Shown: one piece after another, positions 8,105 to 37,171 of the stretch | How the letters are laid out: each line of letters opens with the position of its first letter | Numbering within the stretch: position 1 is the first letter of the stretch | Source: Candidatus Levyibacteriota bacterium | GTDB lineage: Bacteria > Patescibacteriota > Microgenomatia > Levybacterales > UBA12049 | Assembly: GCA_029260905.1 (NCBI GenBank) | Contig: JAJDCH010000010.1 | Span: 13,027-77,026, forward strand | Length of the DNA stretch: 64,000 nucleotides | Direction of reading: 5' to 3' | The notes under the pieces: generated by a model | What the model was told of the DNA's origin: nothing | The model's input: the letters and a program-made list of their open reading frames with translations, nothing else | Databases searched by the model: none | Program-made: the position numbers and the translations under genes

Positions 8105-9175
8105 ATGAGTTCTGAAAGAGATAATTACAGAGGTCAGGAAAGAAATTATTTGAATCCTAGTAGAAGTCCTTTTTGGCAACGTACTCGTCTTAGTGGGCCT
8201 GATAAATTCAATCTGTATGGCCCAAGAAAAAAGCTTAAAGATTTTTATCTCGAGGCAAGTGCAACAGGGGAAGTATTTGAATTTTTTGTCTACAAAACAT
8301 TGCCTCTTGAATTTGCAGATCTTGTTGATATACCCCATGATGAGGTCGAGATAGAAGAGGTTATATTTCGAACAGGAAGATTATACGTTCCAGAAAAGAG
8401 AAGCATATCATTCAGAAAAATATTTAACTCTGAAGATAGAGGTCCTGAAATTTCTCGTGCTGTGCCTATGAGTAGTGCTGATAGTGAAGTGATGACCTTT
8501 TTAGCGTATACTCTTGTTGCAAATGAGAGATATAGAGAATTAACACCTGATGAGTTAAACACCAAATCAAGTGAAGTAATTTTGAAAAAAACAGGAGTTT
8601 TAAATCGATTATCTCAGTCTGGATTTCCTGATTTAGTCTCAGAAGAAAATGCTGAAATTATAAGTAGGGTTATTCCTGAGGATATGAAGGATAAATTCTA
8701 TGGTTCTGTTGCTGATTGGTTGACACATCTCGCCTTGTATTCAGTAGCTAAAAATTCATCTCTAAGAGGCAAGTATGTATTCCCTTTTCCTTATTTAATT
8801 AGTGACGAGAGGCTTCCGCATCCTGATTTTCTGCCATATATGGGAAAATCACTTTTGGAATTTGGATATCTGCTTGGTTCTGTTCTTACAAAAGGGGTAA
8901 ACTATCATGCAGAAGTACTAGTATCAGCAGGTGAAAATTATCTGAAATTGTGTGAAAAAGTTTTGTCTCCGAGCAAGCAGGTAAAAAATAGAGATAGATT
9001 AATGGCTGAGGTGAATAGCTTTAAGTTAGATTATATAAGCCTTTTGAAGTTTTATCAAAAATATCCTGGTTTACTAAATCAGAGTAAAATATCTCCTAAG
9101 GATGAAGAGCCCAATTTGTCTACTACAGAGGAAATTATAGGAAAAGTACAAAAAGTTATAAAAAAATATTCTTAA
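8105..9175 (+). CDS. hypothetical protein that lies between the duplicated ychF 3' ends
   Basis: 356 aa with no motif I recognise. It begins 11 nt after the ychF stop. Confidence 0.5.
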   Translation: MSSERDNYRGQERNYLNPSRSPFWQRTRLSGPDKFNLYGPRKKLKDFYLEASATGEVFEFFVYKTLPLEFADLVDIPHDEVEIEEVIFRTGRLYVPEKRSISFRKIFNSEDRGPEISRAVPMSSADSEVMTFLAYTLVANERYRELTPDELNTKSSEVILKKTGVLNRLSQSGFPDLVSEENAEIISRVIPEDMKDKFYGSVADWLTHLALYSVAKNSSLRGKYVFPFPYLISDERLPHPDFLPYMGKSLLEFGYLLGSVLTKGVNYHAEVLVSAGENYLKLCEKVLSPSKQVKNRDRLMAEVNSFKLDYISLLKFYQKYPGLLNQSKISPKDEEPNLSTTEEIIGKVQKVIKKYS

Positions 9176-9226
9176 GTTAGTTGGGTTGTTGAGGTTAAAG
9201 AGATGAAAAAATAGAATTATTTGCTT

Positions 9227-9255
9227 GATGGAGATGTGGTGGAGTTCAAGATCGG
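9227..9255 (+). repeat. direct repeat copy 2, a relic ychF 3' end
   Basis: gatggagatgtggtggagttcaagatcgg, followed by cagctaa. It matches copy 1 at 28 of 29 positions. In frame it reads DGDVVEFKIGS-stop. Confidence 0.7.
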
Positions 9256-9301
9256 CAGCTAAATCTTGCGTTTTAGTTTTCTCGTTGTTATTATTTAGTT
9301 G

Positions 9302-9751
9302 ATGTCGGAATTTCCACGCTTTTTGAGGAAAAAGGGAAAAGAATCAGACAATCTTAATAGGCCTTCTAGTTTTGTAGTCAGTAAAAAAACAGATGATGGC
9401 ATACAAGGACCACCCCAGAGGCTCAGCGTCGGTAGTATATTTCCCTTTTATGAAGATGGAAATATCTCTGCACTTCTCCGTGTAACAGGACCAACAGCTG
9501 CCGATGTAGTGATAAGTAGGGGAGGCTCAAGGTCTGTTGTGAATCATAGCTGGACCTTTGATGCAGAAGGAAAAGGACACCTGACTGTTACACAAAATGG
9601 AATAAATAACATAGCTACACATTTAAGGGGTTTGCGAATCGACAAGGATGGTATACGAAGTAATAATATGGAAATTAGGTATAGAAAAATTGATTCATCT
9701 ATCCCTGTGACTGTCTTTTCTGCTTCACCTGCTCCCAGCCCTGTGTATTAA
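9302..9751 (+). CDS. hypothetical protein
   Basis: ORF of 149-150 aa with no motif I recognise. Confidence 0.35.
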   Translation: MSEFPRFLRKKGKESDNLNRPSSFVVSKKTDDGIQGPPQRLSVGSIFPFYEDGNISALLRVTGPTAADVVISRGGSRSVVNHSWTFDAEGKGHLTVTQNGINNIATHLRGLRIDKDGIRSNNMEIRYRKIDSSIPVTVFSASPAPSPVY

Positions 9752-26965: not shown

Positions 26966-28261
26966 GTGATAAATGCTAAAATTAAGATAAGAATGCTTCA
27001 AAAAATTAAGAAATTTTTCTATTTTCCTGTTGCATCATATTTTCGATTTTTTGCAAAAATACGTTTGCGAAGATGGAACCCGAAAATTATTGTAGTCACA
27101 GGATCAAACGGAAAAACAACCCTTCTCCACATGCTTGATGCTCAGATTGGGGATAGGGCTTTGTATTCATATCATGCAAATAGCAGTTTTGGAGTGCCAT
27201 TTGATGTTTTGGATTTGCACCGCATGAGTCTTTTGAGAAAAGAATGGTTTTGGCTTATTTTTAAAGCTCCCATTCATGCTTTCAAAAAATCTCCAAAACA
27301 AGAAATATATATAGTAGAGGCAGACTGTGACAGAGCAGGAGAAGGAAGATTTTTGGCAGAATTTTTAAGACCAGATGTTTGCTTGTGGGTTAGTGTTTCC
27401 AAAACACATGCATTGGGATTTGAAGATTCAGTTGGTAAAAAATTTGAAACAGTAGAAGAGGCAATAGCTTTTGAGTATGGATATTTTCTAGAATACTGCA
27501 AAGGCTTTGCAGTAATTGATGGGGGATCAGTGCTCATGAAGAGTCAGGCAGAAAGAACCACAGCTGATGTCATAGAAGTATCAAGAGATGTTTTAACCAG
27601 TTATAGAGTAGATAATGATGGTACAAGATTTGAAATAGGTGGTATGAAATATTTTCTATCCGCGCTTTTGCCTGATGTTAGTTTTGTTTCAATTTTGATG
27701 TGTTTAAAAGTGGCAAATTTTCTTGGAATTCCTTTTGATAGCAAATTTTCAAATTTTAAAAACCCACCTGGTAGGGGATCAATATTTGATGGGGTAAAAG
27801 ATATCACAATTATTGATAGTAGTTATAATGCAAATCCCAAGTCTATATCTGCTACTCTTTCTATGTTTAGTAAATTTGAAGGAATTGATAAGTTTTTAGT
27901 AATTGGTGATATGCTTGAAATGGGAAATTCTGAAAAAACTGAACATGAGAAACTTGCTGATGAAATTGCAAAGTATAAATTTAAAAAAATATTTTATCTA
28001 GGGCCACGCATTAAGAAATATACAGTTCCTAAATTGAAAAATTTACTTGGAGATAAAATATTTGTTAGTGGATCAGAAAATCCTGCTGAGGTTTTGAAAA
28101 TCTTAAAAGATAATATAAAGGGGAGAGAGATAATACTTTTTAAAGGCGCGCGTTTTATGGAGGGAATAATTGAGAATCTTTTAAAAAATAAATCCGACAT
28201 CCAAAAGCTTCCCAGACGCGAAAAGATCTGGGATAAAAGAAGAAAAGCTTTCGGGCTTTAA
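26966..28261 (+). CDS. Mur ligase family protein, MurF-like and lacking the usual N-terminal domain
   Basis: The P-loop 'VVTGSNGKTTLLHML' is only about 45 aa from the N-terminus. 'DSSYNANPKS' matches the MurF DDSYNANP motif. Confidence 0.65.
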   Translation: MINAKIKIRMLQKIKKFFYFPVASYFRFFAKIRLRRWNPKIIVVTGSNGKTTLLHMLDAQIGDRALYSYHANSSFGVPFDVLDLHRMSLLRKEWFWLIFKAPIHAFKKSPKQEIYIVEADCDRAGEGRFLAEFLRPDVCLWVSVSKTHALGFEDSVGKKFETVEEAIAFEYGYFLEYCKGFAVIDGGSVLMKSQAERTTADVIEVSRDVLTSYRVDNDGTRFEIGGMKYFLSALLPDVSFVSILMCLKVANFLGIPFDSKFSNFKNPPGRGSIFDGVKDITIIDSSYNANPKSISATLSMFSKFEGIDKFLVIGDMLEMGNSEKTEHEKLADEIAKYKFKKIFYLGPRIKKYTVPKLKNLLGDKIFVSGSENPAEVLKILKDNIKGREIILFKGARFMEGIIENLLKNKSDIQKLPRREKIWDKRRKAFGL

Positions 28262-28317
28262 ATTTATAATTTTGAATTTGTTTGTAATTTAGAAATTAAA
28301 GTTTGGTATTTTAATTT

Positions 28318-29010
28318 ATGTCAGAAAATAAAAAAATATATATTTTACATGGATGGGTTTATTCGACTGAAAAGTGGAAACCTTTTTTAGTTGAATTGAA
28401 AGAAAAAGGATTTGATCCAGTAGTGCTAAAAATTCCAGGACTTACTGCGCCACTTAATAAGGTTTGGACACTTGAAAATTATGTTGAGTGGTTCAATAAA
28501 GAAATAGATTCAAAAAAAGACTTAATACTTTTGGGACATTCCAATGGGGGAAGAATTTGTCTGGCTTTTGCTGCAAAATATCCTGAAAAAGTTGCAAAGT
28601 TAATTCTTATTGACAGTGCCGGTATCTATCATAATGAATTACCGATTAGAATTAAACGTCTGGTCTTTGGAACAGCAGCAAAACTTGGAAAGAAATTTTC
28701 AAATGCAAAAGTTTTTCAAAAATTGCTATATAAATTTGCAAAAGAACATGATTACGAAAAGGCAGATCCGATTGTGAAAAAAACAATGGTCAACTTAATA
28801 AAGATTGATCTTCGTGATAGACTTAAAAATCTAGAAGCTAAGACTTTGATTATTTGGGGAAGTATAGACAGGATAACACCAGTTGAAGATGGGGTATTAA
28901 TGAAAGAAAAAATTAAAAATTCAATTATTGAGATTGTTGATGGAGCAAAGCATTCACCAATGTTTACGCATTCTGAAGTAGTTGCAGAAATAATTTATAA
29001 AAACTTATGA
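28318..29010 (+). CDS. alpha/beta-fold hydrolase
   Basis: Nucleophile elbow 'LLGHSNGGRI' (G-H-S-x-G). Confidence 0.7.
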   Translation: MSENKKIYILHGWVYSTEKWKPFLVELKEKGFDPVVLKIPGLTAPLNKVWTLENYVEWFNKEIDSKKDLILLGHSNGGRICLAFAAKYPEKVAKLILIDSAGIYHNELPIRIKRLVFGTAAKLGKKFSNAKVFQKLLYKFAKEHDYEKADPIVKKTMVNLIKIDLRDRLKNLEAKTLIIWGSIDRITPVEDGVLMKEKIKNSIIEIVDGAKHSPMFTHSEVVAEIIYKNL

Positions 29011-30233
29011 ATATTTTTAATTCGCTTGGTTCAAATTATGATTTTTCTACAGCTATAAAGATATTATTTGCTAGTAATGATAAAGAATACTCAGAGAAGC
29101 TTAAGAGCGTTCTGCAACAAAGATACAAGGGTGAAGCGGAGGTTTTTTATAAAGGACGAGACGCGTTAAGGATGGCTTTGAGGATAATTAATAAAAAAGG
29201 TTCAAGTGTTGGGATTTGTGGATTTACATGTTTTGCAGTTTATGATTCTGTTGTCAAAGAAGGATATGAGCCTATCCTTTTGGATATCGAGAGAAATAAT
29301 TTAAATTTTTCTTTTGAAACCTTTGAAAAAGCAGTTGCAGATAATCCTGAGCTTAAGGTTTTGATAATTCAAAATACTCTTGGATTCGTAGCTAATATTG
29401 AAAAAATTTCAAAATTGTGCAGAGAGAAAAAAATACTACTTATTGAAGATCTTGCTCATTCAATTGGATCAACTTATGAAAATGAAAAAGAAGCAGGGAC
29501 TGTTGGTGATTTTACAATCCTTTCTTTTAGTCAGGACAAAATGATTGATGGGGTAACTGGTGGCGGTTTAATAGTAAGAAATTTGGCATTAAAGAATAAA
29601 AATTTAACTTTTAAAAAGTTGGATTTTAAGGCGCAATTAAGAGACAGATTGTATCCTTTTTTTACTTTTAAAATTAGAAAAACTTACGGTTTGGGAATTG
29701 GCAAACTTATCCATTTTATTTTGAAGAACTTAAACCTACTATCAAATCCAATGGATAATACTCGTCCCGACACTTTTTCAGGAGTTGAAGAAATGCTTGA
29801 GCTTCCGAGTTGGTACTGTAAGCATATTCTCGATGAGTTCATAAACATTGAAAAAAACTTAAGCTATAGAAGAGAAATAGCAAAAGTTTATAGCGACAAT
29901 CTTGACAAAAGACTTCTTATGTCAAATGTTGTTGCAGGTGTTAATAATTCTACTTGCTTGAGGTTTCCGATTTTTATTGAAAAAAGACAAGAGCTAATCA
30001 GTTTTTTAAACAAATCAGGTGTATATGTATCAGATATTTGGTATGATGCGCCAATTGCACCAAAAAAATATATGGAAAAAACAGATTACAAAATTGGTGA
30101 GTGTCCCAATTCTGAAGTAGTCGCAAGTGCAATACTAAATCTGCCAACACATAGAAACGTTTCGCTAAAGGATGCAAGGCAGATTTCTGATAAGATAAAT
30201 TTGTGGTTAAAAAATGAACAGAATTATATATAA
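29007..30233 (+). CDS. DegT/DnrJ/EryC1/StrS-family PLP sugar aminotransferase
   Basis: 'SFSQDKMIDGVTGGGLIV' is the DegT-family Lys motif region. Confidence 0.8.
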   Translation: MNIFNSLGSNYDFSTAIKILFASNDKEYSEKLKSVLQQRYKGEAEVFYKGRDALRMALRIINKKGSSVGICGFTCFAVYDSVVKEGYEPILLDIERNNLNFSFETFEKAVADNPELKVLIIQNTLGFVANIEKISKLCREKKILLIEDLAHSIGSTYENEKEAGTVGDFTILSFSQDKMIDGVTGGGLIVRNLALKNKNLTFKKLDFKAQLRDRLYPFFTFKIRKTYGLGIGKLIHFILKNLNLLSNPMDNTRPDTFSGVEEMLELPSWYCKHILDEFINIEKNLSYRREIAKVYSDNLDKRLLMSNVVAGVNNSTCLRFPIFIEKRQELISFLNKSGVYVSDIWYDAPIAPKKYMEKTDYKIGECPNSEVVASAILNLPTHRNVSLKDARQISDKINLWLKNEQNYI

Positions 30234-30258
30234 AATATAAATCCAAGCAAATTGCATT

Positions 30259-31278
30259 ATGATAGTTGTCAAAGAGGTTGAAGATAAAAAAGAGTGGGAA
30301 GATTTTATTTACCAAAATCCAGATGCCAATTTTTTGCAGTCTTGGCATTTTGGAGAATTTCATAAAAGTCTTGGAAAAGAGGTAGAAAGAATTGGATTTT
30401 TTGATGAAAATAAATTAATCGGTGTGATGCAGGCAGTTATAGAGAATGCAAAAAGAGGAAGGTATATGACTATTTCTGGCGGACCGATAATTGATTGGAA
30501 GAACAAGTCACTTGTTAAATTAGTTTTTACTAAAGTAAAAAATATAGCAGGGGAGAAGAAATGTGTATTTGTCCGAGTAAGGCCACAGTTAATTGAAGAT
30601 GATTATACCCAAAAAGTTTTTGCTGATAATGGTTTGCAAAAATCGCAAATGCATTTAACAGCAGATCTTACTTATCAGCTTGATATTACAAAAACAGAAG
30701 ACGAGCTTCTGGCAGGTATGCGAAAGGCAACAAGGTATGAAATTAGAAAGGCGATAAAAGAAGAAATAAAAATTACTAAATCACAAGACCCAAAAGATGT
30801 AAAAGAATTTTATGATATACAACTTGAAACAGCAAAAAGGCAAAAGTTTGTCCCTTTTTCATATAAGTTTTTTTATGAGCAATTTAAAACATTTTTCAAT
30901 GAAGACAAAGCGATTTTATATAGAGCCTACTTTGAAAAAAAATTACTAGCTGGTGCATTTATAATTTTTTATAATAATGAAGCAGTATATCATTATGGAG
31001 TTGGAACAGAAGAGGGAAGAAGGCATCCGGGTGCATATCTTATACAATGGGAGGCAATAAAAGAGGCTAAGAGTAGAGGCTTAAAGCACTATAATTTTTG
31101 GGGTGTAGCGCCTGTTGATGCCAAAAATCATAGATTTTATGGTGTAAGTATTTTCAAAAGAGGGTTTGGAGGAGAAGATGTGCAGTATCTTCATGCGCAT
31201 GATTTAGTAATAAAAAGATTTTTGTATCTTATAAATTATTTGATAGAAAGGATAAGAAAAAAAATAAGAAAAGTCTAG
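30259..31278 (+). CDS. FemAB-family peptidoglycan peptidyltransferase, aminoacyl-tRNA dependent
   Basis: 'HYGVGTEEGRRHPGAYLIQWEAIKEAKSRGLKHYNFWGV...FKRGFGGEDVQY' matches the FemAB/FemX C-terminal consensus. Confidence 0.7.
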   Translation: MIVVKEVEDKKEWEDFIYQNPDANFLQSWHFGEFHKSLGKEVERIGFFDENKLIGVMQAVIENAKRGRYMTISGGPIIDWKNKSLVKLVFTKVKNIAGEKKCVFVRVRPQLIEDDYTQKVFADNGLQKSQMHLTADLTYQLDITKTEDELLAGMRKATRYEIRKAIKEEIKITKSQDPKDVKEFYDIQLETAKRQKFVPFSYKFFYEQFKTFFNEDKAILYRAYFEKKLLAGAFIIFYNNEAVYHYGVGTEEGRRHPGAYLIQWEAIKEAKSRGLKHYNFWGVAPVDAKNHRFYGVSIFKRGFGGEDVQYLHAHDLVIKRFLYLINYLIERIRKKIRKV

Positions 31279-31279
31279 A

Positions 31280-32575
31280 TTACAAAATATCTTCCTTTTC
31301 TTCCTCATTTATTTCAGGGCTGATTAGAAAACCTTTTAAGTCAATTCTTCCGATAATCATTTGGTATTTTAGATGAGATCTGTCAACAAGCGAAACCGTG
31401 GTGTTAATTTTTTTTCCAGCTAGAAGAAATGAAATATCTGAAGTTGGTCTGTAGGCTTTTCCGCTTGCTGATTCTATATAAACTTTTTTCTTGCCAATTT
31501 CTAGACCAATTTTGTCTGCAAAGTTTTTGTCAATTGATGATCTAAATGCTCCAGTATCAAGTTTTGCTTTTATTTCTTTGTAACCACCTGCATATTTGAC
31601 TTGAACTGGAAATATTACAGGAAGAACTTTGGGTGAAGTAGATACTTTTTCAGAAAAGCTCTCTGAAAAAAGGGTTTTGGCCAGATGTAGCCCTTTTTCT
31701 GGTGATGTGACTTCCATGTCTTCAATTCTTTCAAGACGAGTTCTTAAAGATTTAAGATTTGCATTTTGAATTTGAAGACCAGGTCTAGCATTTAATTCAA
31801 GAATAAGCGGACCTTTTTTGGCATCAATTACAATATCAACTCCTGCAAAACCAAGCTTTATGGCATTTTGAGCACGGGATGCAAGAAGTAATACATTGTC
31901 CCAATCAGGCAATTTTATACCTGCGATTTTCCTTTTTGTAAATGGAAATTTGTAAATAAGTCTTGAATTGTCAGTCGCGCTTGTTGTTATTCCTGTTGAT
32001 ATGTCTATTCCCGCAGCCAATGCGCCAAGGTGGATGTTTGCTTTTCCGTCTGATTCTTCTGTGGGAATTCTGATCATAGCCATAATTGGTACTTGTTTGA
32101 ATACAATTATACGGATATCTGCAAGCCCCACAGGCGCAATTTTTTTAAAAAAAGAATGTTGATTAACGATGTCTTCGATAAATGCGACATCTGGAAGATA
32201 TTGAAGCGAGAATGCTCCATCGATTATGTCAAAAATATGAGATTCTAATTTTTTAACATCAAAAACCTCATTGTTTATTGTTGTTCCTTTTCCAAATTTC
32301 CAATTTTTGAAAGCCAATATTCCAGATCCTCCATATCCTCTTGATGGTTTTACCGCAAAACCTGTTTCTGGAAGTTTTCTCCAAATAAAATTTCTTACAT
32401 CAGCTCTTGTCTTAAAGGATGCAAACAATTTTGGAGTTGGGATGTTATGTCTGGTAAGTACTTCTTTCGTCTTCAATTTATCATCAGCAATTCTTTTTGC
32501 TGAAGGTTTATTGTAGGGGCGGATATATAGAAAGTTTCGGGCGTTCATGCCCAAGACGGTTTTACTTATTGCCAT
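31280..32575 (-). CDS. RimK-like ATP-grasp amidoligase of the alpha-L-glutamate-ligase-related family, fused to a C-terminal retropepsin-like clan-AA (DTGA) domain
   Basis: N-terminus 'MNARNFLYIRPYNKPSAKRIADDKLKTKEVLTRHNIPTPKL' (RLAN/ATP-grasp). C-terminus 'KAKLDTGAFRSSIDKNFADKIGL', which has the D-T-G-A aspartic protease motif. Confidence 0.65.
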   Translation of the reverse strand: MAISKTVLGMNARNFLYIRPYNKPSAKRIADDKLKTKEVLTRHNIPTPKLFASFKTRADVRNFIWRKLPETGFAVKPSRGYGGSGILAFKNWKFGKGTTINNEVFDVKKLESHIFDIIDGAFSLQYLPDVAFIEDIVNQHSFFKKIAPVGLADIRIIVFKQVPIMAMIRIPTEESDGKANIHLGALAAGIDISTGITTSATDNSRLIYKFPFTKRKIAGIKLPDWDNVLLLASRAQNAIKLGFAGVDIVIDAKKGPLILELNARPGLQIQNANLKSLRTRLERIEDMEVTSPEKGLHLAKTLFSESFSEKVSTSPKVLPVIFPVQVKYAGGYKEIKAKLDTGAFRSSIDKNFADKIGLEIGKKKVYIESASGKAYRPTSDISFLLAGKKINTTVSLVDRSHLKYQMIIGRIDLKGFLISPEINEEEKEDIL

Positions 32576-33461
32576 GTTTTAGTATTGGTTTAAATCTTAA
32601 GTACTCTGTAATTCGAAGTCCAAAGTAGCGGCCAATAATTATATTAGCAGGTATAAGAAGTAGGATAAATTCTGGATAAAGAAGGATAAGTGTTCTGAGT
32701 TGCTGCCATGACAAAAGAAGAAAGCCCAATATTCCCAGAACAAGAGTAATTAGCGTTGTTTGAATAGTTTCTTCAAGCTCTCTTTCAAGAAAAAGAGTTA
32801 CTATTCTGTCACTTAAAAGAATTAATAAAAGAACAGGAAAAATAGATAAATTTCGAACGTCAATAATGCCATACACAGAACTTATTGTAAGAGCGCTTAA
32901 GAGAAGTATTGCAACAACTAGCATAGAAAGAGCAGTTTTGGGCATTTGCATAATGCGTATTTTTTTAAGTATTGATCTTGAAACAAAGGATGCAAAAAGA
33001 ATAGTTGCAAGCATTATAAGTCCAGGTGTCACACCTGTTGCAAGAAGAGTGATCGAAAGGGCGATTGGAACAAGGAGCCCAATGCCTGATAATCCAATTA
33101 TGTATCTAAATCCAACAACAATTGTTGCTAGAACAGGAAGAAGAAGAATAAGAATAATTGTGTTGGTTGGAACACCTGCCCTTGCTGCGTATTGGACAGC
33201 AAACGGTGCAAAGTTGGTTATTGTTAATTTTTCAACTCTTCTTTTTTCAAAAAGCGAGGTAAGCACTTCTTCTTTTTCTGTATCTTCCTCTGGTTGAGTA
33301 ATATCTTTAGCCTCTTCATCTCCTTCTTTATTTTTTGCTGATTGAGTTGCCTGGCGGGCAGCTTCGCTTGCTGCAGTTGGTGGATCCAAAGTTTGGGCAA
33401 TTGCTAGGGTTGGACTAAGCAGTGTGAGTAAGGTAAGTAAAATTATTATTAAAATTTTCAT
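32562..33461 (-). CDS. 7-transmembrane protein with a signal peptide; the partner of the ATP-grasp system
   Basis: Signal peptide 'MKILIIILLTLLTLLSPTLAIA', an acidic extracellular segment of about 70 aa, then 7 predicted transmembrane helices. It overlaps the downstream ATP-grasp gene by 14 nt. Confidence 0.55.
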   Translation of the reverse strand: MKILIIILLTLLTLLSPTLAIAQTLDPPTAASEAARQATQSAKNKEGDEEAKDITQPEEDTEKEEVLTSLFEKRRVEKLTITNFAPFAVQYAARAGVPTNTIILILLLPVLATIVVGFRYIIGLSGIGLLVPIALSITLLATGVTPGLIMLATILFASFVSRSILKKIRIMQMPKTALSMLVVAILLLSALTISSVYGIIDVRNLSIFPVLLLILLSDRIVTLFLERELEETIQTTLITLVLGILGFLLLSWQQLRTLILLYPEFILLLIPANIIIGRYFGLRITEYLRFKPILKHGNK

Positions 33462-33521
33462 TTATTTATTTTATCTGATCTACTTTAGATTGTATATCTT
33501 TATTTTTTATAAAAATATTTT

Positions 33522-33607
33522 TGGTGCCGAGAGAGGGATTCGAACCCTCACGAGTTTGAGCTCAAAGGTTTTTGAGACCTTCGTGTCTACCATTCCACCA
33601 CCTCGGC
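33522..33607 (-). tRNA. tRNA-Leu(CAA), a class II tRNA with a long variable arm and an encoded CCA
   Basis: Reverse complement GCCGAGGTGGTGGAATGGTAGACACGAAGGTCTCAAAAACCTTTGAGCTCAAACTCGTGAGGGTTCGAATCCCTCTCTCGGCACCA. The acceptor, D, anticodon (loop CTCAAAA, anticodon CAA) and T arms all fold. Confidence 0.8.
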
Positions 33608-34723: not shown

Positions 34724-35274
34724 CTGGAGTTACGGATTTAAGAGCAGGAACAACATATGAAGAAAACGGTCAGTATTTTACAGTAATTTCATATGAACAT
34801 ATAAAAATGGGCAGGGGTAGCGCCAATATAAAAGTAAAGGTAAGAAATATAAAAACAGGATCAACAACGGAAAAAAGCTACATAAATGGAGCAAAGATAA
34901 ATACAGTTCCTCTAAGTAAAAAGGATATGCAATATCTTTATAAAGATGATTCAGATGTTTTTTTTATGGATCCAGCAACTTTTGAACAGGTAAGTATCTC
35001 TTTAAAGCTTGTTTCAGGTCATATGTTTCTTAAAGAAGGAGAGAGCTTTTCTGTTAGTTTTCTTGAAGGAGCGCCTCTTGAGGTATCACTTCCATCAAAA
35101 ATGATTTTCAAGATAGCAGAAACAGCACCAGGTGCAAAGGGTAATTCTGCAACAAATGTTTTTAAGGATGCAGTGCTTGAAAATGGGGTTAAGACAAAAG
35201 TTCCTCTTTTTATAAAAATAGGAGAAGAGATTAAAATTGATACCAGAACGGGCGCATATAGTGAGAAGGCATGA
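34720..35274 (+). CDS. efp: elongation factor P
   Basis: 'LRAGTTYEENGQYFTVISYEHIKMGRGSANIKVKVRNIKTG' is the EF-P KOW-like N-terminus. Confidence 0.9.
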   Translation: MTGVTDLRAGTTYEENGQYFTVISYEHIKMGRGSANIKVKVRNIKTGSTTEKSYINGAKINTVPLSKKDMQYLYKDDSDVFFMDPATFEQVSISLKLVSGHMFLKEGESFSVSFLEGAPLEVSLPSKMIFKIAETAPGAKGNSATNVFKDAVLENGVKTKVPLFIKIGEEIKIDTRTGAYSEKA

Positions 35275-36536
35275 ACAAAAACGCATTTTCCGCATTATCG
35301 GAGAAGCCTTTCCTAAATCTTTGGATCGGCGAAATTTTTACACAAATTCCAACTCATCTATTTAATTTTTTCCTCATCCTGATTATTTTTAATCTTACTA
35401 AATCAAATACAATAGTATCTTTTGCTGTGCTGACATTTACAGTTCCAGCGATTATTTTTGGATCAATAGCTGGTGTGTTTGTTGATAGATGGAACAAGAA
35501 AAAAGTTCTTGTAATCACCAATTTAATAAGAGCATTTTGCCTTATTTTTCTAATGTTTTTTCTTGATAATATTTTTGTAATTTTTGCTGTTTCACTTGTT
35601 GTATCTATTTTGGTTCAATTTTTTATCCCAGCTGAGATTCCAATGGTTCCACTTTCTGTATCGTCTAAAAATCTTTTTTCGGCAAATGCGCTTTTTGGTA
35701 TTGCAATTTTTGCATCAATTTTAATTGCCTATGTTTTTTCTGGATCGGTAATTTTATTAGTTGGGCAGAGAATGACTCTTTTTATTCTCGCAATTATGCT
35801 AACTATTGGTGCATTTTTTATATGGAAAATAAAACTTGCAAAAAAGGAGCAAGACTCCAAGAAATTTTCATCACCAGATGTGTTTCACGATATAAAAAAT
35901 ACATTAAAGTTAATGCAAAGTAGTAATTCAGTAACAAATTCTCTTATTCTTCTTGCGTCTTCACAGATTTTAATTCTGGTCATAGCAACAATTGCACCAG
36001 CTTACGCTACAGATATATTGAAAATAAGAGCAGAAGAGTTCCCGCTTTTATTTGCTGTTCCAGCTGCTATTGGAATGGGGGTTGGTGCTGTAATACTTGT
36101 TAATTTTTTTCAAAATAAATCAAGAGAAAAAGCAATAAATATAGGCATAGTTCTTGCTGGTTTATCTATTTTGCTTTTGCCATACTGTGCAGATATCGCT
36201 TCATTTTTTTCAATAAAGCAAGGATTATTTTTTATACCTAGTTTTTTAAATGTGACAATTATTCAGCTCGTGACAGTAGGTTTTCTGGCTTTCTTTATTG
36301 GAGTATCAAATTCTTTTGTTACAGTTCCTGCAAATACGATGCTTCAGGAAAAAACAGAAAATCGTGTCAGGGGTAAGATTTATGGACTTTTAAACATGAT
36401 TGTTGGAATCTTGTCACTTTTGCCGATCTTGATTAGTGGAGGCCTCTCAGATATAGTTGGAGTAGGTAGTGTAATAACAGCAATAGCATTATTAATTATA
36501 GCAATAGGAATTGCTAAGTTTTTTCAAAGAACATGA
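35271..36536 (+). CDS. MFS transporter
   Basis: 12 transmembrane segments and the 'GVFVDRWNKKKVL' loop motif. Confidence 0.7.
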   Translation: MNKNAFSALSEKPFLNLWIGEIFTQIPTHLFNFFLILIIFNLTKSNTIVSFAVLTFTVPAIIFGSIAGVFVDRWNKKKVLVITNLIRAFCLIFLMFFLDNIFVIFAVSLVVSILVQFFIPAEIPMVPLSVSSKNLFSANALFGIAIFASILIAYVFSGSVILLVGQRMTLFILAIMLTIGAFFIWKIKLAKKEQDSKKFSSPDVFHDIKNTLKLMQSSNSVTNSLILLASSQILILVIATIAPAYATDILKIRAEEFPLLFAVPAAIGMGVGAVILVNFFQNKSREKAINIGIVLAGLSILLLPYCADIASFFSIKQGLFFIPSFLNVTIIQLVTVGFLAFFIGVSNSFVTVPANTMLQEKTENRVRGKIYGLLNMIVGILSLLPILISGGLSDIVGVGSVITAIALLIIAIGIAKFFQRT

Positions 36537-37171
36537 TTTTTTTAGTTCAAATTCCATCATTTTTAATCTTTTTATATGTCCTCTACAAGTTAAGTAGGGA
36601 TGATTATGTTTTAATTCGAAAAAATATCTCTCAAGAGATGATTTTTGATGCTGGATTTTTGACTGTTTTGATTGGTTTTTTGGCGCCTCGCATTTTATAT
36701 TTTATATTGGTTGTTCCCGATTCAATTAAAACAATTAATTTTATGCTAAGTTCATATCTTATTGCTGCTTCTACATTTCTATATTTTATGTCACGATACA
36801 AAAAATTCCCAACATATAGAATATATGATTTCTTTACTTTATCTTTTTTGATTGCGCTTCCTTTTGGATTATTTGTTTCTGCTTTTTTCTTAGAAAATGT
36901 TTTACAGTTTTTAGTATTTGCAAGCAGTTTTATCTATTTAGTTCTTTCATTTTTATTTATGCTTTTCCTGTATCCAAGACTTATGAGAAATGATTTGAAA
37001 GAGGGGAGTATTACTATTTTTTTCTTTATTCTTTTTTCATTAATTACATATGCTTTTTTAATTATGGAGAAAGGAATGAGTCTTTCAAATTTAGTACGCG
37101 AAACACACATTCCATCGATTTTAATTCTTTTAATTAGTATATTTCTTTTAATAAAACAATCAAGAAGATAA
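36533..37171 (+). CDS. hypothetical polytopic membrane protein
   Basis: 212 aa and very hydrophobic. Confidence 0.35.
   Translation: MIFLVQIPSFLIFLYVLYKLSRDDYVLIRKNISQEMIFDAGFLTVLIGFLAPRILYFILVVPDSIKTINFMLSSYLIAASTFLYFMSRYKKFPTYRIYDFFTLSFLIALPFGLFVSAFFLENVLQFLVFASSFIYLVLSFLFMLFLYPRLMRNDLKEGSITIFFFILFSLITYAFLIMEKGMSLSNLVRETHIPSILILLISIFLLIKQSRR

Follow-up and report, generated by a model that had tools for sequence, protein, structure and literature searches.

A window of 64,000 nt from the genome of an uncultured Candidatus Levyibacteriota bacterium (contig JAJDCH010000010.1) carries two overlapping minus-strand genes that very probably constitute a bona fide variant of the Rlo system, a system made up of a seven-transmembrane (7TM) protein, an ATP-grasp ligase and a retropepsin. 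Features are on the minus strand unless a plus sign is given. Gene 1 (32562–33461) encodes an RloB-like 7TM membrane protein of 299 aa that has no transglutaminase domain and matches PF14402 (4.1e-24) and only the 7TM part of NF052267. Gene 2 (31280–32575) encodes a 431-aa bifunctional protein with an RloC-like ATP-grasp ligase and a retropepsin in one chain, as judged from profile matches, conservation and AlphaFold2 (AF2) modelling. Both open reading frames (ORFs) had been placed at these coordinates in a preliminary description of the sequence, and ORF coordinates and translation bear out the overlap that it gave them, which is 14 nt from the start of gene 2 to the stop of gene 1 (ATGGCAATAAGTAA, 32562–32575). 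The same spacing class recurs in 45 of 63 related loci. This overlap suggests translational coupling, and the two genes are probably a conserved, translationally coupled pair. The module is separated from its neighbours by 60 nt on the upstream side and 1 nt on the downstream side. A tRNA-Leu(CAA) gene (33522–33607; ARAGORN and Rfam RF00005, 58.6 bits) lies in the same orientation 60 nt upstream of the 7TM gene. Chance is ruled out by the extreme E-values and by the hundreds of full-length homologues of both proteins.

The gene 2 protein begins MAISKTVLGMNARNF; the MNARNF... start described previously is residue 10 of this longer form, whose own start is conserved (consensus MAVSKxxLGMNARNFLYIR). 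The ATP-grasp ligase domain spans residues 10–290 (31706–32548), with the N-terminal family motif MNARNFLYIRPYN. It matches PF14397 (ATPgrasp_ST) over residues 13–285 with 214.6 bits (2.1e-63, cut-off 31.4). By far the best NCBIfam match is TIGR02291, the 'alpha-L-glutamate ligase-like' model, at 258 bits (E 7.4e-77, cut-off 314). Scores against the RimK models are lower, at 58.3 bits for TIGR00768 (cut-off 143.4) and 26.6 bits for PRK10446 (cut-off 331). The Mg/ATP-binding segment D247...E260-L-N262 (DIVIDAKKGPLILELN, 31790–31837) has the D-13-E-2-N spacing of Ddl and RimK and is aligned by phmmer with AGVDI...EVNASPG of RimK. Residues K76, D247, E260, N262, R264 and G266 are invariant among 57 homologues, and the active site is therefore intact. 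The assignment to the RimK-like ATP-grasp ligases made in the preliminary description is upheld by these matches and invariant residues.

The AF2 model of the gene 2 protein, built on the 57 homologues, has a mean predicted local distance difference test score (pLDDT) of 86.3. In Foldseek it is closest in structure to ArgX/LysX and RimK (E ~5e-11 to 1e-10), with cyanophycin synthetase and the D-Ala-D-Ala ligases next. With RimK structures only the C-terminal ATP-binding segment aligns. Since phmmer aligns residues 18–50 of the query with residues 85–117 of RimK, the N-terminal domain of approximately 85 residues found in RimK has no counterpart here. A short invariant start motif, M-N-A-R-N, stands in its place. 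Hydropathy analysis of the gene 2 protein showed no transmembrane (TM) segment and no signal peptide.

The ligase is followed by a linker (residues 291–315, 31631–31705) with pLDDT of approximately 63–65, falling below 50 at residues 308–312, and then by a RimB/RloA-type retropepsin domain (residues 316–420, 31316–31630). Residues 324–398 match PF13650 (Asp_protease_2) with 26.3 bits against a cut-off of 24.3. Weaker matches are found to PF05618, now RimB-like, and to the NCBIfam models RloA1-3, and PF05618 is also matched by many homologues. The TIGR02281 model named in the preliminary description reached only 13.6 bits, below its cut-off of 57.95. When Foldseek was run with the full-length model the list of matches was filled by ATP-grasp proteins, and profile–profile alignment was used for the retropepsin instead. 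The profile of the C-terminal domain was aligned by hhalign with 38 standalone RloA-type domains, from the retropepsin ORFs upstream of classical 7TM–ligase pairs, at a probability of 99.0% (E 2.3e-18, 101 columns). The register of this alignment pairs AKLDTGA with ARIDTGA, Y-R-P with R-R-P and DRSHLKYxMIxGR with DRSxxxYPxLxGR. From the DTG to the R-P motif the domain has approximately 20–30 fewer residues than RloA, and the hhalign alignment contains a deletion of approximately 20 residues. Retropepsin-like peptidases of clan AA are single-lobe beta-barrels with D-T/S-G-A whose active site is completed in the homodimer; the AF2 monomer of the retropepsin domain is all-beta, with pLDDT of approximately 83–90.

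The catalytic motif K338-L-D340-T-G-A343 lies at 31547–31564. The same register is obtained by phmmer against the RloA crystal structures, in which the motif reads AKMDTGA in 9G59 (RloA(Pfl)) and AKLDTGA in 9G58. The DTGA had previously been proposed to occupy the retropepsin active-site position, and both alignments place it there; the retropepsin match is significant, the DTGA is in register and the ATP-grasp residues are present. K338, D340, G342 and A343 are invariant in the 57 homologues, as are R376 of the Y-R-P motif and R399 of the D-R-S motif. By alignment, K338 and D340 would correspond to K46 and D48 of P. aeruginosa RloA, and motif spacing suggests that R376 and R399 are the equivalents of RloA R114 and R137. 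In RloA, D48 is the catalytic Asp, K46, R114 and R137 bind polyglutamate, and cleavage of polyglutamate and complementation are both lost in R114A and R137A (PMC12239564).

There is no Cys, no signal peptide and no TM segment in the retropepsin domain (residues 316–420), and the protease is therefore cytoplasmic, beside the ligase. Periplasmic RloA has a disulfide and RimB has none (PMC12239564); the Cys-free domain fits the cytosolic type. The chain ends in an acidic tail, EINEEEKEDIL (31283–31315). Among 187 fused homologues of at least 49% identity, the last 15 residues carry a net charge of -4 or lower in 84%, compared with 6% of the ORFs in the window. The median net charge of these 187 tails is -7, and 51 of them have EE as their terminus. 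The tail keeps its composition while its sequence varies (P0002-P0120, L079-L158). It is absent from the distant fused proteins, below approximately 47% identity, and from fusions to MATCAP. The protein from the window itself ends ...EEEKEDIL, that is, in Leu rather than Glu. The acidic tail is therefore a real feature of the clade and not a general requirement. It could serve the basic protease channel as a pseudo-substrate, pair with the basic tail of the 7TM protein or act as a self-primer. As general roles, those of pseudo-substrate and self-primer are weakened by the absence of the tail from the distant and MATCAP fusions and by the terminal Leu here.

The gene 1 protein matches PF14402 (7TM_transglut) over residues 103–293, with 85.9 bits against a Pfam cut-off of 25. 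Of the 508 positions in the NCBIfam RloB profile NF052267 only 312–507 are matched, with 59.5 bits against a cut-off of 900, and the profile search gave no match to Transglut_core. From its sequence, the protein can be described as the 7TM core of RloB minus the transglutaminase ectodomain, and the absence of that domain agrees with what had been noted before. Homologues are numerous (445 matches), with the best 120 being 249–351 aa long and matching PF14402 only. The signal peptide (MKILIIILLTLLTLLSPTLAIA, 33396–33461), recognised by hydropathy, conservation in orthologues and translation, has a predicted cleavage site after A-I-A. This A-x-A-Q site (A22, Q23) is almost invariant among 38 orthologues and reads A-I-A|Q in the protein from the window.

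Alignment of the 38 orthologues divides the extracytoplasmic segment (33168–33395) into a variable low-complexity linker and a juxtamembrane motif, (D/N)(I/V)TxPE...K..VL..L..R......N....Y. The ectodomain is approximately 76 aa long and in this protein is rich in Ala, Glu, Thr and Lys. T55, P57, R74, N83 and Y91 are conserved and the linker is not. The AF2 model of gene 1 (mean pLDDT 77.7) has pLDDT below 60 across residues 20–60. The preliminary description had reported a signal peptide, a short acidic ectodomain and seven TM helices, and hydropathy, AF2 and PF14402 agree with this outline. The ectodomain is indeed short and Glu-rich here, but its acidity is not conserved and only the juxtamembrane motif is. 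An acidic ectodomain was also considered as a conserved feature or as a substrate of the protease; this was rejected because the linker is variable and in many orthologues non-acidic.

The seven-helix core (32622–33167) is seen in both the AF2 model and the hydropathy profile and has an N-out/C-in topology, with K/R-rich loops on the predicted inner side. Residues common to the proteins of the Candidate Phyla Radiation (CPR) and to 63 classical RloB proteins are P109, R119, G123, G128, P132, G147, R162, K/R175, F208-P209, D/E218-R219 and E226. Those that cluster on the predicted cytoplasmic face are R119, R162, K/R175, D/E218-R219, E226 and the tail. This basic cytoplasmic C-terminal tail, G-L-R-x-T-E-Y-x-R-F... 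(32565–32621), has the pattern G-x-Y-x-G-x-R-x-x-E-x-x-R-F, with G277, Y279, G281, R283, E286 and F290 conserved in CPR and classical RloB proteins alike. In the natural fusions P0339, P0340 and P0345 the ligase follows directly after the 7TM tail; because this is so in P0339, the tail is cytoplasmic. The C-terminal tail is probably the docking site of the ligase. A structure search with the 7TM model returned no informative fold match.

The pair of genes is conserved well beyond this genome. The fused protein has 3907 matches at the level of 90% clusters. The best 120 are all 401–451 aa long with the same architecture and, where named, come from Levyibacteriota, Saccharimonadales and Patescibacteria. 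A HMMER search over 1.84 billion representatives found 2318 clusters at E <=1e-3 and 406 at <=1e-30. The fusion is present at all 80 metagenome loci (49–69% identity). Of the 64 fused loci with enough upstream sequence, 63 have a same-strand gene for a 7TM protein of 300–345 aa directly upstream, in most cases with the same short overlap. Likewise, in a collection with one genome per species, a 7TM gene, here for a transglutaminase-7TM protein of approximately 510 aa, is directly upstream of the ligase gene in 64 of 65 cases. The 7TM–fusion pair is a conserved unit, as the preliminary description had expected of orthologous loci. The fusion and the missing transglutaminase domain, taken there as peculiar to this locus, are the standard architecture of a large CPR family.

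In the species collection only the locus from Dojkabacteria (CPR) is fused. Unfused ligases, with 37–44% identity, are found in Gammaproteobacteria, Alphaproteobacteria, Cyanobacteria, Spirochaetes, Omnitrophota, Nitrospirota and ANME archaea. A separate retropepsin gene could be detected upstream of the 7TM gene in 38 of 58 species loci, giving the classical rloA-rloB-rloC order. The protease profile was built from CPR sequences, and 19 loci without a match may be too divergent for it. The standalone RloA-type ORFs of the classical loci have N-terminal hydrophobic or lipobox sequences and usually one or two Cys. Five archaeal loci (L009, L013-L016), from ANME-2/Methanosarcinales and Methanobacteriota metagenome-assembled genomes, have a gene for an ectodomain-7TM protein directly upstream of an RloC-like ligase of 39–41% identity. 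No retropepsin gene was detected upstream in these five with the CPR-built profile. The system extends beyond the bacteria, to archaea.

Considerable variation is built around this core. Of the 150 best representatives, 44 have the ligase-retropepsin architecture and approximately 35 have a further C-terminal domain after it, usually MATCAP (PF08014), which has a carboxypeptidase fold; YdjC and a second ATP-grasp domain are other such additions. The ligase-retropepsin-MATCAP proteins of approximately 800 aa and the other relatives with added domains are 36–47% identical over residues 1–420. They have the same retropepsin and 7TM partner as the pair described here, but extra peptidase or ligase domains and a varied ectodomain. 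In 11 of the 150 the 7TM protein is fused N-terminally to the ligase. Such 7TM-ligase fusions include P0339, P0340 and P0395, P0339 being without an ectodomain. P0355 (912 aa) is a 7TM-ligase-subtilase, in which a third kind of peptidase is joined to the ligase. P0345 (657 aa) consists of a TM anchor, a retropepsin, the 7TM core and the ligase, with its protease in the ectodomain position and predicted to be outside. Coupling of the ligase to a peptidase thus recurs with retropepsin, MATCAP and S8 domains, and P0345 and P0355 together show that the peptidase partner can be on either side of the membrane and of different protease clans.

The ectodomain of the 7TM family is interchangeable, being transglutaminase-like, a PKD domain (L077), a prenyltransferase-like toroid (P0395), a retropepsin or a short linker. 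At L160, where the 7TM protein likewise has no transglutaminase domain, a gene of its own codes for a 606-aa Transglut_core protein approximately 3 kb downstream, after uvrA (8438–9311). This might be the missing ectodomain supplied in trans, or a coincidence. An aquifer contig of CPR type (L077, 1870–10678) encodes a PKD-7TM protein, an 800-aa ligase-retropepsin-MATCAP protein, three more ATP-grasp ligases and a second MATCAP. This operon looks like a multi-ligase, multi-peptidase peptide assembly line around the same core.

A triad of 7TM_transglut, ATPgrasp_ST and 'Zn_protease' proteins was predicted by Iyer, Abhiman, Burroughs and Aravind in 2009, as cited in PMC12239564. As far as the triad is described there, all three of its Pfam families (PF14402, PF14397 and PF05618) are matched at this locus and its neighbourhood logic holds in 64 of 65 genomes; the form found here differs in having two genes, with the peptidase fused and the 7TM protein truncated. 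The preliminary description drew the link to this triad, a 7TM_transglut protein with a RimK-like ligase and a retropepsin, and this kinship is supported by the species genomes. It also held that the triad had not been characterised experimentally, which is out of date. The triad was named RloABC in Pseudomonas (P. aeruginosa and P. fluorescens; Lormand et al., mBio 2025, PMC12239564), where it is an envelope-stress system with a part in hypo-osmotic tolerance, envelope integrity and biofilm, and a RimB–RimK hybrid has been studied (PMC11957791). Thus the earlier domain assignments and the link to the triad have stood, and the ideas of an uncharacterised system, of a form unique to this locus and of a genomic island have not.

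RloA proteins are secreted dimeric retropepsins that cut runs of at least 8 Glu, and the defects of a triple rloA mutant are suppressed by deletion of rloB or rloC (PMC12239564). Because of this suppression, RloB and RloC are considered to make what RloA removes, although the activities of RloB and RloC themselves are still to be established (PMC12239564). The likeness of the present pair to RloABC lies in the PF14402 7TM core, the PF14397 ATP-grasp ligase with TIGR02291 as its best, sub-threshold NCBIfam match, the PF05618-type retropepsin and the position of the 7TM gene directly upstream of the ligase gene. The catalytic DTG and the basic residues equivalent to K46, R114 and R137 are also conserved. 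However, the protease here is the Cys-free, cytoplasmic C-terminus of the ligase, whereas RloA stands alone and is secreted, having a signal peptide and a disulfide. The inactive transglutaminase ectodomain of approximately 300 aa in RloB is missing from the 7TM protein. Identity of the ligase to classical RloC is 37–44%, and its TIGR02291 score does not reach the cut-off. In addition the host belongs to the CPR, while RloB has been reported to be 96% proteobacterial (PMC12239564).

The second system for comparison is RimB and RimK. Cytoplasmic RimB is an endopeptidase specific for at least 5–6 contiguous Glu (Little et al., JBC 2025, PMC11957791). It increases the ATPase activity of RimK approximately 4-fold and is needed for free poly-alpha-glutamate to be detectable, and a natural RimB–RimK hybrid, with the protease at its N-terminus, is proteolytically active (PMC11957791). 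Only polyglutamate is cleaved by RloA and RimB (PMC12239564, PMC11957791). The gene 2 protein resembles RimBK in coupling a cytoplasmic, Cys-free retropepsin to a RimK-superfamily ATP-grasp ligase, which in RimBK also share one polypeptide. A polyglutamate-specific protease that stimulates its ligase is a feature of RimB. The domain order differs, being protease-ligase in RimBK and ligase-protease here. The ligase is of the RloC/PF14397 branch rather than RimK, with no RimK-like N-terminal domain, and it has an obligate 7TM partner, which the Rim systems do not. The fusion looks independent of RimBK and convergent with it; the form resembles RimBK in logic and is Rlo-like in ancestry. No literature on the CPR ligase-retropepsin form was found in searches that did not take in the text of the 2009 survey itself.

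Owing to the tRNA-Leu gene, the module had been suggested to be an accessory island, horizontally acquired by integration at this tRNA. The 3' end of the tRNA does face the module, which is the geometry expected of a tRNA-targeted island. However, the order tRNA-Leu(CAA)-7TM-fusion and both flanks (NIF3/EF-P/MFS and FemAB/DegT) are kept in relatives with 62–69% protein identity. The tRNA-Leu arrangement is found in L001 and 13 close relatives and is absent below approximately 60% identity. No repeat of the tRNA-Leu 3' end occurs anywhere in the 64-kb window, GC content is 0.35 in the module and 0.31–0.36 in the flanks, and no integrase or other mobility gene is present among the neighbours in the window. 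These neighbours are housekeeping genes: DnaB, EamA, Mur-ligase-like, alpha/beta hydrolase, DegT, FemAB, NIF3, EF-P and MFS. Integration as an island is therefore rejected on synteny, composition, repeats and neighbours, and is now scarcely credible. The tRNA-Leu neighbour is a case of vertical synteny within one clade. It is a clade-conserved neighbour and no component of the system, and the module is a vertically inherited chromosomal unit rather than a mobile island.

Flanking genes vary with lineage. NIF3/EF-P/MFS and FemAB/DegT are shared by the window, L001 and L159, while PBP1A/peptidase S11/GH18 are found in L004, BipA/GreA in L006, peptidase M3/UvrA in L160 and a glycosyltransferase in L161. 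No third conserved gene was found across these five different neighbourhoods. The search for a small conserved ORF that could be the peptide substrate, proposed previously, found none in related neighbourhoods; none adjoins the pair, where the gaps of 60 nt and 1 nt leave no room. An adjacent precursor-peptide ORF was therefore rejected. There is no further copy of the ligase, retropepsin or 7TM gene in the window.

Four clustered plus-strand genes (26966–31278(+)) code for a protein resembling Mur ligases, an alpha/beta hydrolase, an aminotransferase of the DegT type and a transferase of the FemAB family. The cluster is convergent on the ligase gene, with 1 nt between the stops, is syntenic in L001 and L159 and is probably a peptidoglycan or surface-glycan modification unit. 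In L004 (1838–6287) the 7TM gene is preceded, at a distance of 16 nt and on the same strand, by the gene for a class A penicillin-binding protein with transglycosylase and transpeptidase domains, and a D-Ala-D-Ala carboxypeptidase and a GH18/19 gene lie further upstream. The module may be co-transcribed with cell-wall enzymes there. Elsewhere in the window, ARAGORN called a tRNA-SeC(TCA) at 36489–36568(+), straddling the end of the MFS gene (35271–36536) and the start of the next ORF (36533–37171). No Rfam family reached its gathering score at that position and the call is probably a false positive.

On balance the pair is judged, by analogy and with modest confidence, to be a membrane-docked synthase of poly-alpha-glutamate or another acidic peptide, with trimming by the fused protease. 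Docked on the 7TM protein, the ligase would spend ATP on joining glutamate into alpha-linked oligomers or polymers, or on making an acidic peptide of a similar kind. As a dimer, the fused retropepsin would cut the chains at approximately 6–8 Glu, releasing product and sustaining turnover of the ligase, as RimB does for RimK. These two steps are drawn from the biochemistry of RimK/RimB and RloA and from the conserved basic protease channel. In support of the synthase, the ATP-grasp fold is nearest to the C-terminus-modifying ligases ArgX/LysX and RimK, with invariant catalytic residues, and conserved Arg and Lys residues on the cytoplasmic 7TM face are common to CPR and classical RloB proteins.

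The part assigned to the 7TM protein is more speculative. It may dock the enzyme through the conserved tail and so localise the reaction at the membrane, and it may stand in for the missing acceptor-binding N-terminal domain. It may also carry the anionic product through the membrane to the cell surface, and there the product would alter envelope charge and osmotic homeostasis. Export by the 7TM protein is a tentative and rather doubtful element. Some transfer step is needed in the Gram-negatives, since periplasmic RloA must meet the product of a cytoplasmic ligase; in the CPR bacteria the protease has moved to the inner side of the membrane.

Several points weigh against a synthase with a trimming protease. 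The ligase scores below the equivalog cut-off of TIGR02291 and its identity to classical RloC is low, and the family name of PF14397 points to sugar-transfer contexts. Its amino-acid substrate and its acceptor are conjectural. RimBK of D. psychrophila gave no RpsF glutamylation in vitro, indicating that hybrids need not act like RimK (PMC11957791). The protease is periplasmic in Pseudomonas and outside in P0345, and the cytoplasmic protease of the CPR bacteria may point instead to intracellular regulation or turnover.

A rival explanation is a regulator that works by protein tagging, in which the ligase polyglutamylates the acidic C-terminus of a cytoplasmic protein, the retropepsin removes the tag and the 7TM protein is an envelope or osmotic sensor, with nothing exported. 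RimK modifies ribosomal protein S6 (RpsF) at its C-terminus, and LysX and ArgX modify LysW; the closest solved folds are thus all ligases that modify protein C-termini. The enzyme's own acidic tail is a possible target, as such a tail is strongly acidic in 84% of the close fused homologues and 51 of 187 share the terminal EE of RpsF. The cytoplasmic position of the protease, as for RimB, and the presence of MATCAP, a C-terminal carboxypeptidase fold, in related proteins also agree with tagging. Nevertheless the tail is missing from the distant fused proteins and the MATCAP fusions and ends ...EDIL here, there is no conserved target gene in the neighbourhoods examined, and the ligase is without the RimK N-terminal domain. 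The near-obligate 7TM partner and the periplasmic location of RloA in Gram-negatives indicate an envelope-directed product. Tagging is an unlikely explanation. An osmotic buffer of cytoplasmic glutamate and polyglutamate would place synthesis and degradation in one cytoplasmic polypeptide, which the fusion does: the 7TM protein would sense tension, the ligase would polymerise glutamate on hypo-osmotic shock and the protease would reverse this, again with no export. Bacteria use glutamate as a major osmolyte, the rlo phenotypes are hypo-osmotic and the idea is raised in the discussion of PMC12239564. It is improbable, because the retropepsins of the family are endopeptidases needing 5–8 contiguous Glu (PMC12239564, PMC11957791) and therefore cannot alone regenerate free Glu. 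In addition, the Pseudomonas protease is outside the cytoplasm, and the 7TM protein gives no sign of mechanosensitivity, the structure search with it having been uninformative.

A cell-wall amidoligase is a third possibility, with the ligase acting on a lipid-linked precursor of peptidoglycan or a surface polymer, the 7TM protein serving as flippase or scaffold and the protease editing. The chemistry would be like that of teichuronopeptide or capsule. The Mur-ligase-like, DegT and FemAB genes near the module in the window, L001 and L159, the PBP1A, peptidase S11 and GH18 genes directly upstream in L004 and the glycosyltransferase in L161 are in keeping with it, as are the Pfam name 'sugar-transfer associated' and the cell-shape and beta-lactam phenotypes of rlo mutants (PMC12239564). 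The FemAB cluster is, however, convergent to the module and is separated from it by two unrelated genes in L001, and other lineages have unrelated flanks (BipA/GreA, UvrA, peptidase M3). The conserved basic protease channel also favours a polyanionic peptide over a stem peptide. The amidoligase is, if anything, slightly more improbable than the osmotic buffer.

The synthase with a trimming protease has a fullest form, which is unlikely as a whole, only a little less so than tagging. The two proteins would then suffice by themselves as a machine for making an anionic peptide of the alpha-linked polyglutamate type and exporting it to the surface of ultra-small CPR cells. The 7TM protein would be a new kind of peptide-polymer translocase that replaces the N-terminal acceptor domain, and the retropepsin would release the chains and set their length. 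If true, this would open a new way of making a charged surface polymer, comparable in function to the poly-gamma-glutamate capsules, and it would reveal the roles of RloB and RloC in pathogens.

The locus is a widespread compact variant of a known, only partly understood RloABC-type system. In Pseudomonas, RloB and RloC have effects on tolerance of antibiotics, on the formation of biofilms and on osmotic survival, and in Vibrio VxrAB strongly induces the operon. The variant is a minimal natural form of the system, having two proteins, no transglutaminase ectodomain and the ligase and protease in one chain. It is kept in hundreds of CPR genomes and is therefore attractive for reconstitution and structural work. 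The mechanism is constrained by the natural fusions, which place the ligase at the cytoplasmic 7TM tail, and by the almost constant coupling of a peptidase to the ligase, outside in RloA and P0345 and inside in the fused form. The main value of the pair is as a minimal model for working out the roles of RloB and RloC. For the CPR bacteria it points to an envelope-linked acidic-peptide pathway in very small genomes, and its upkeep in such genomes indicates that it has a function worth keeping.

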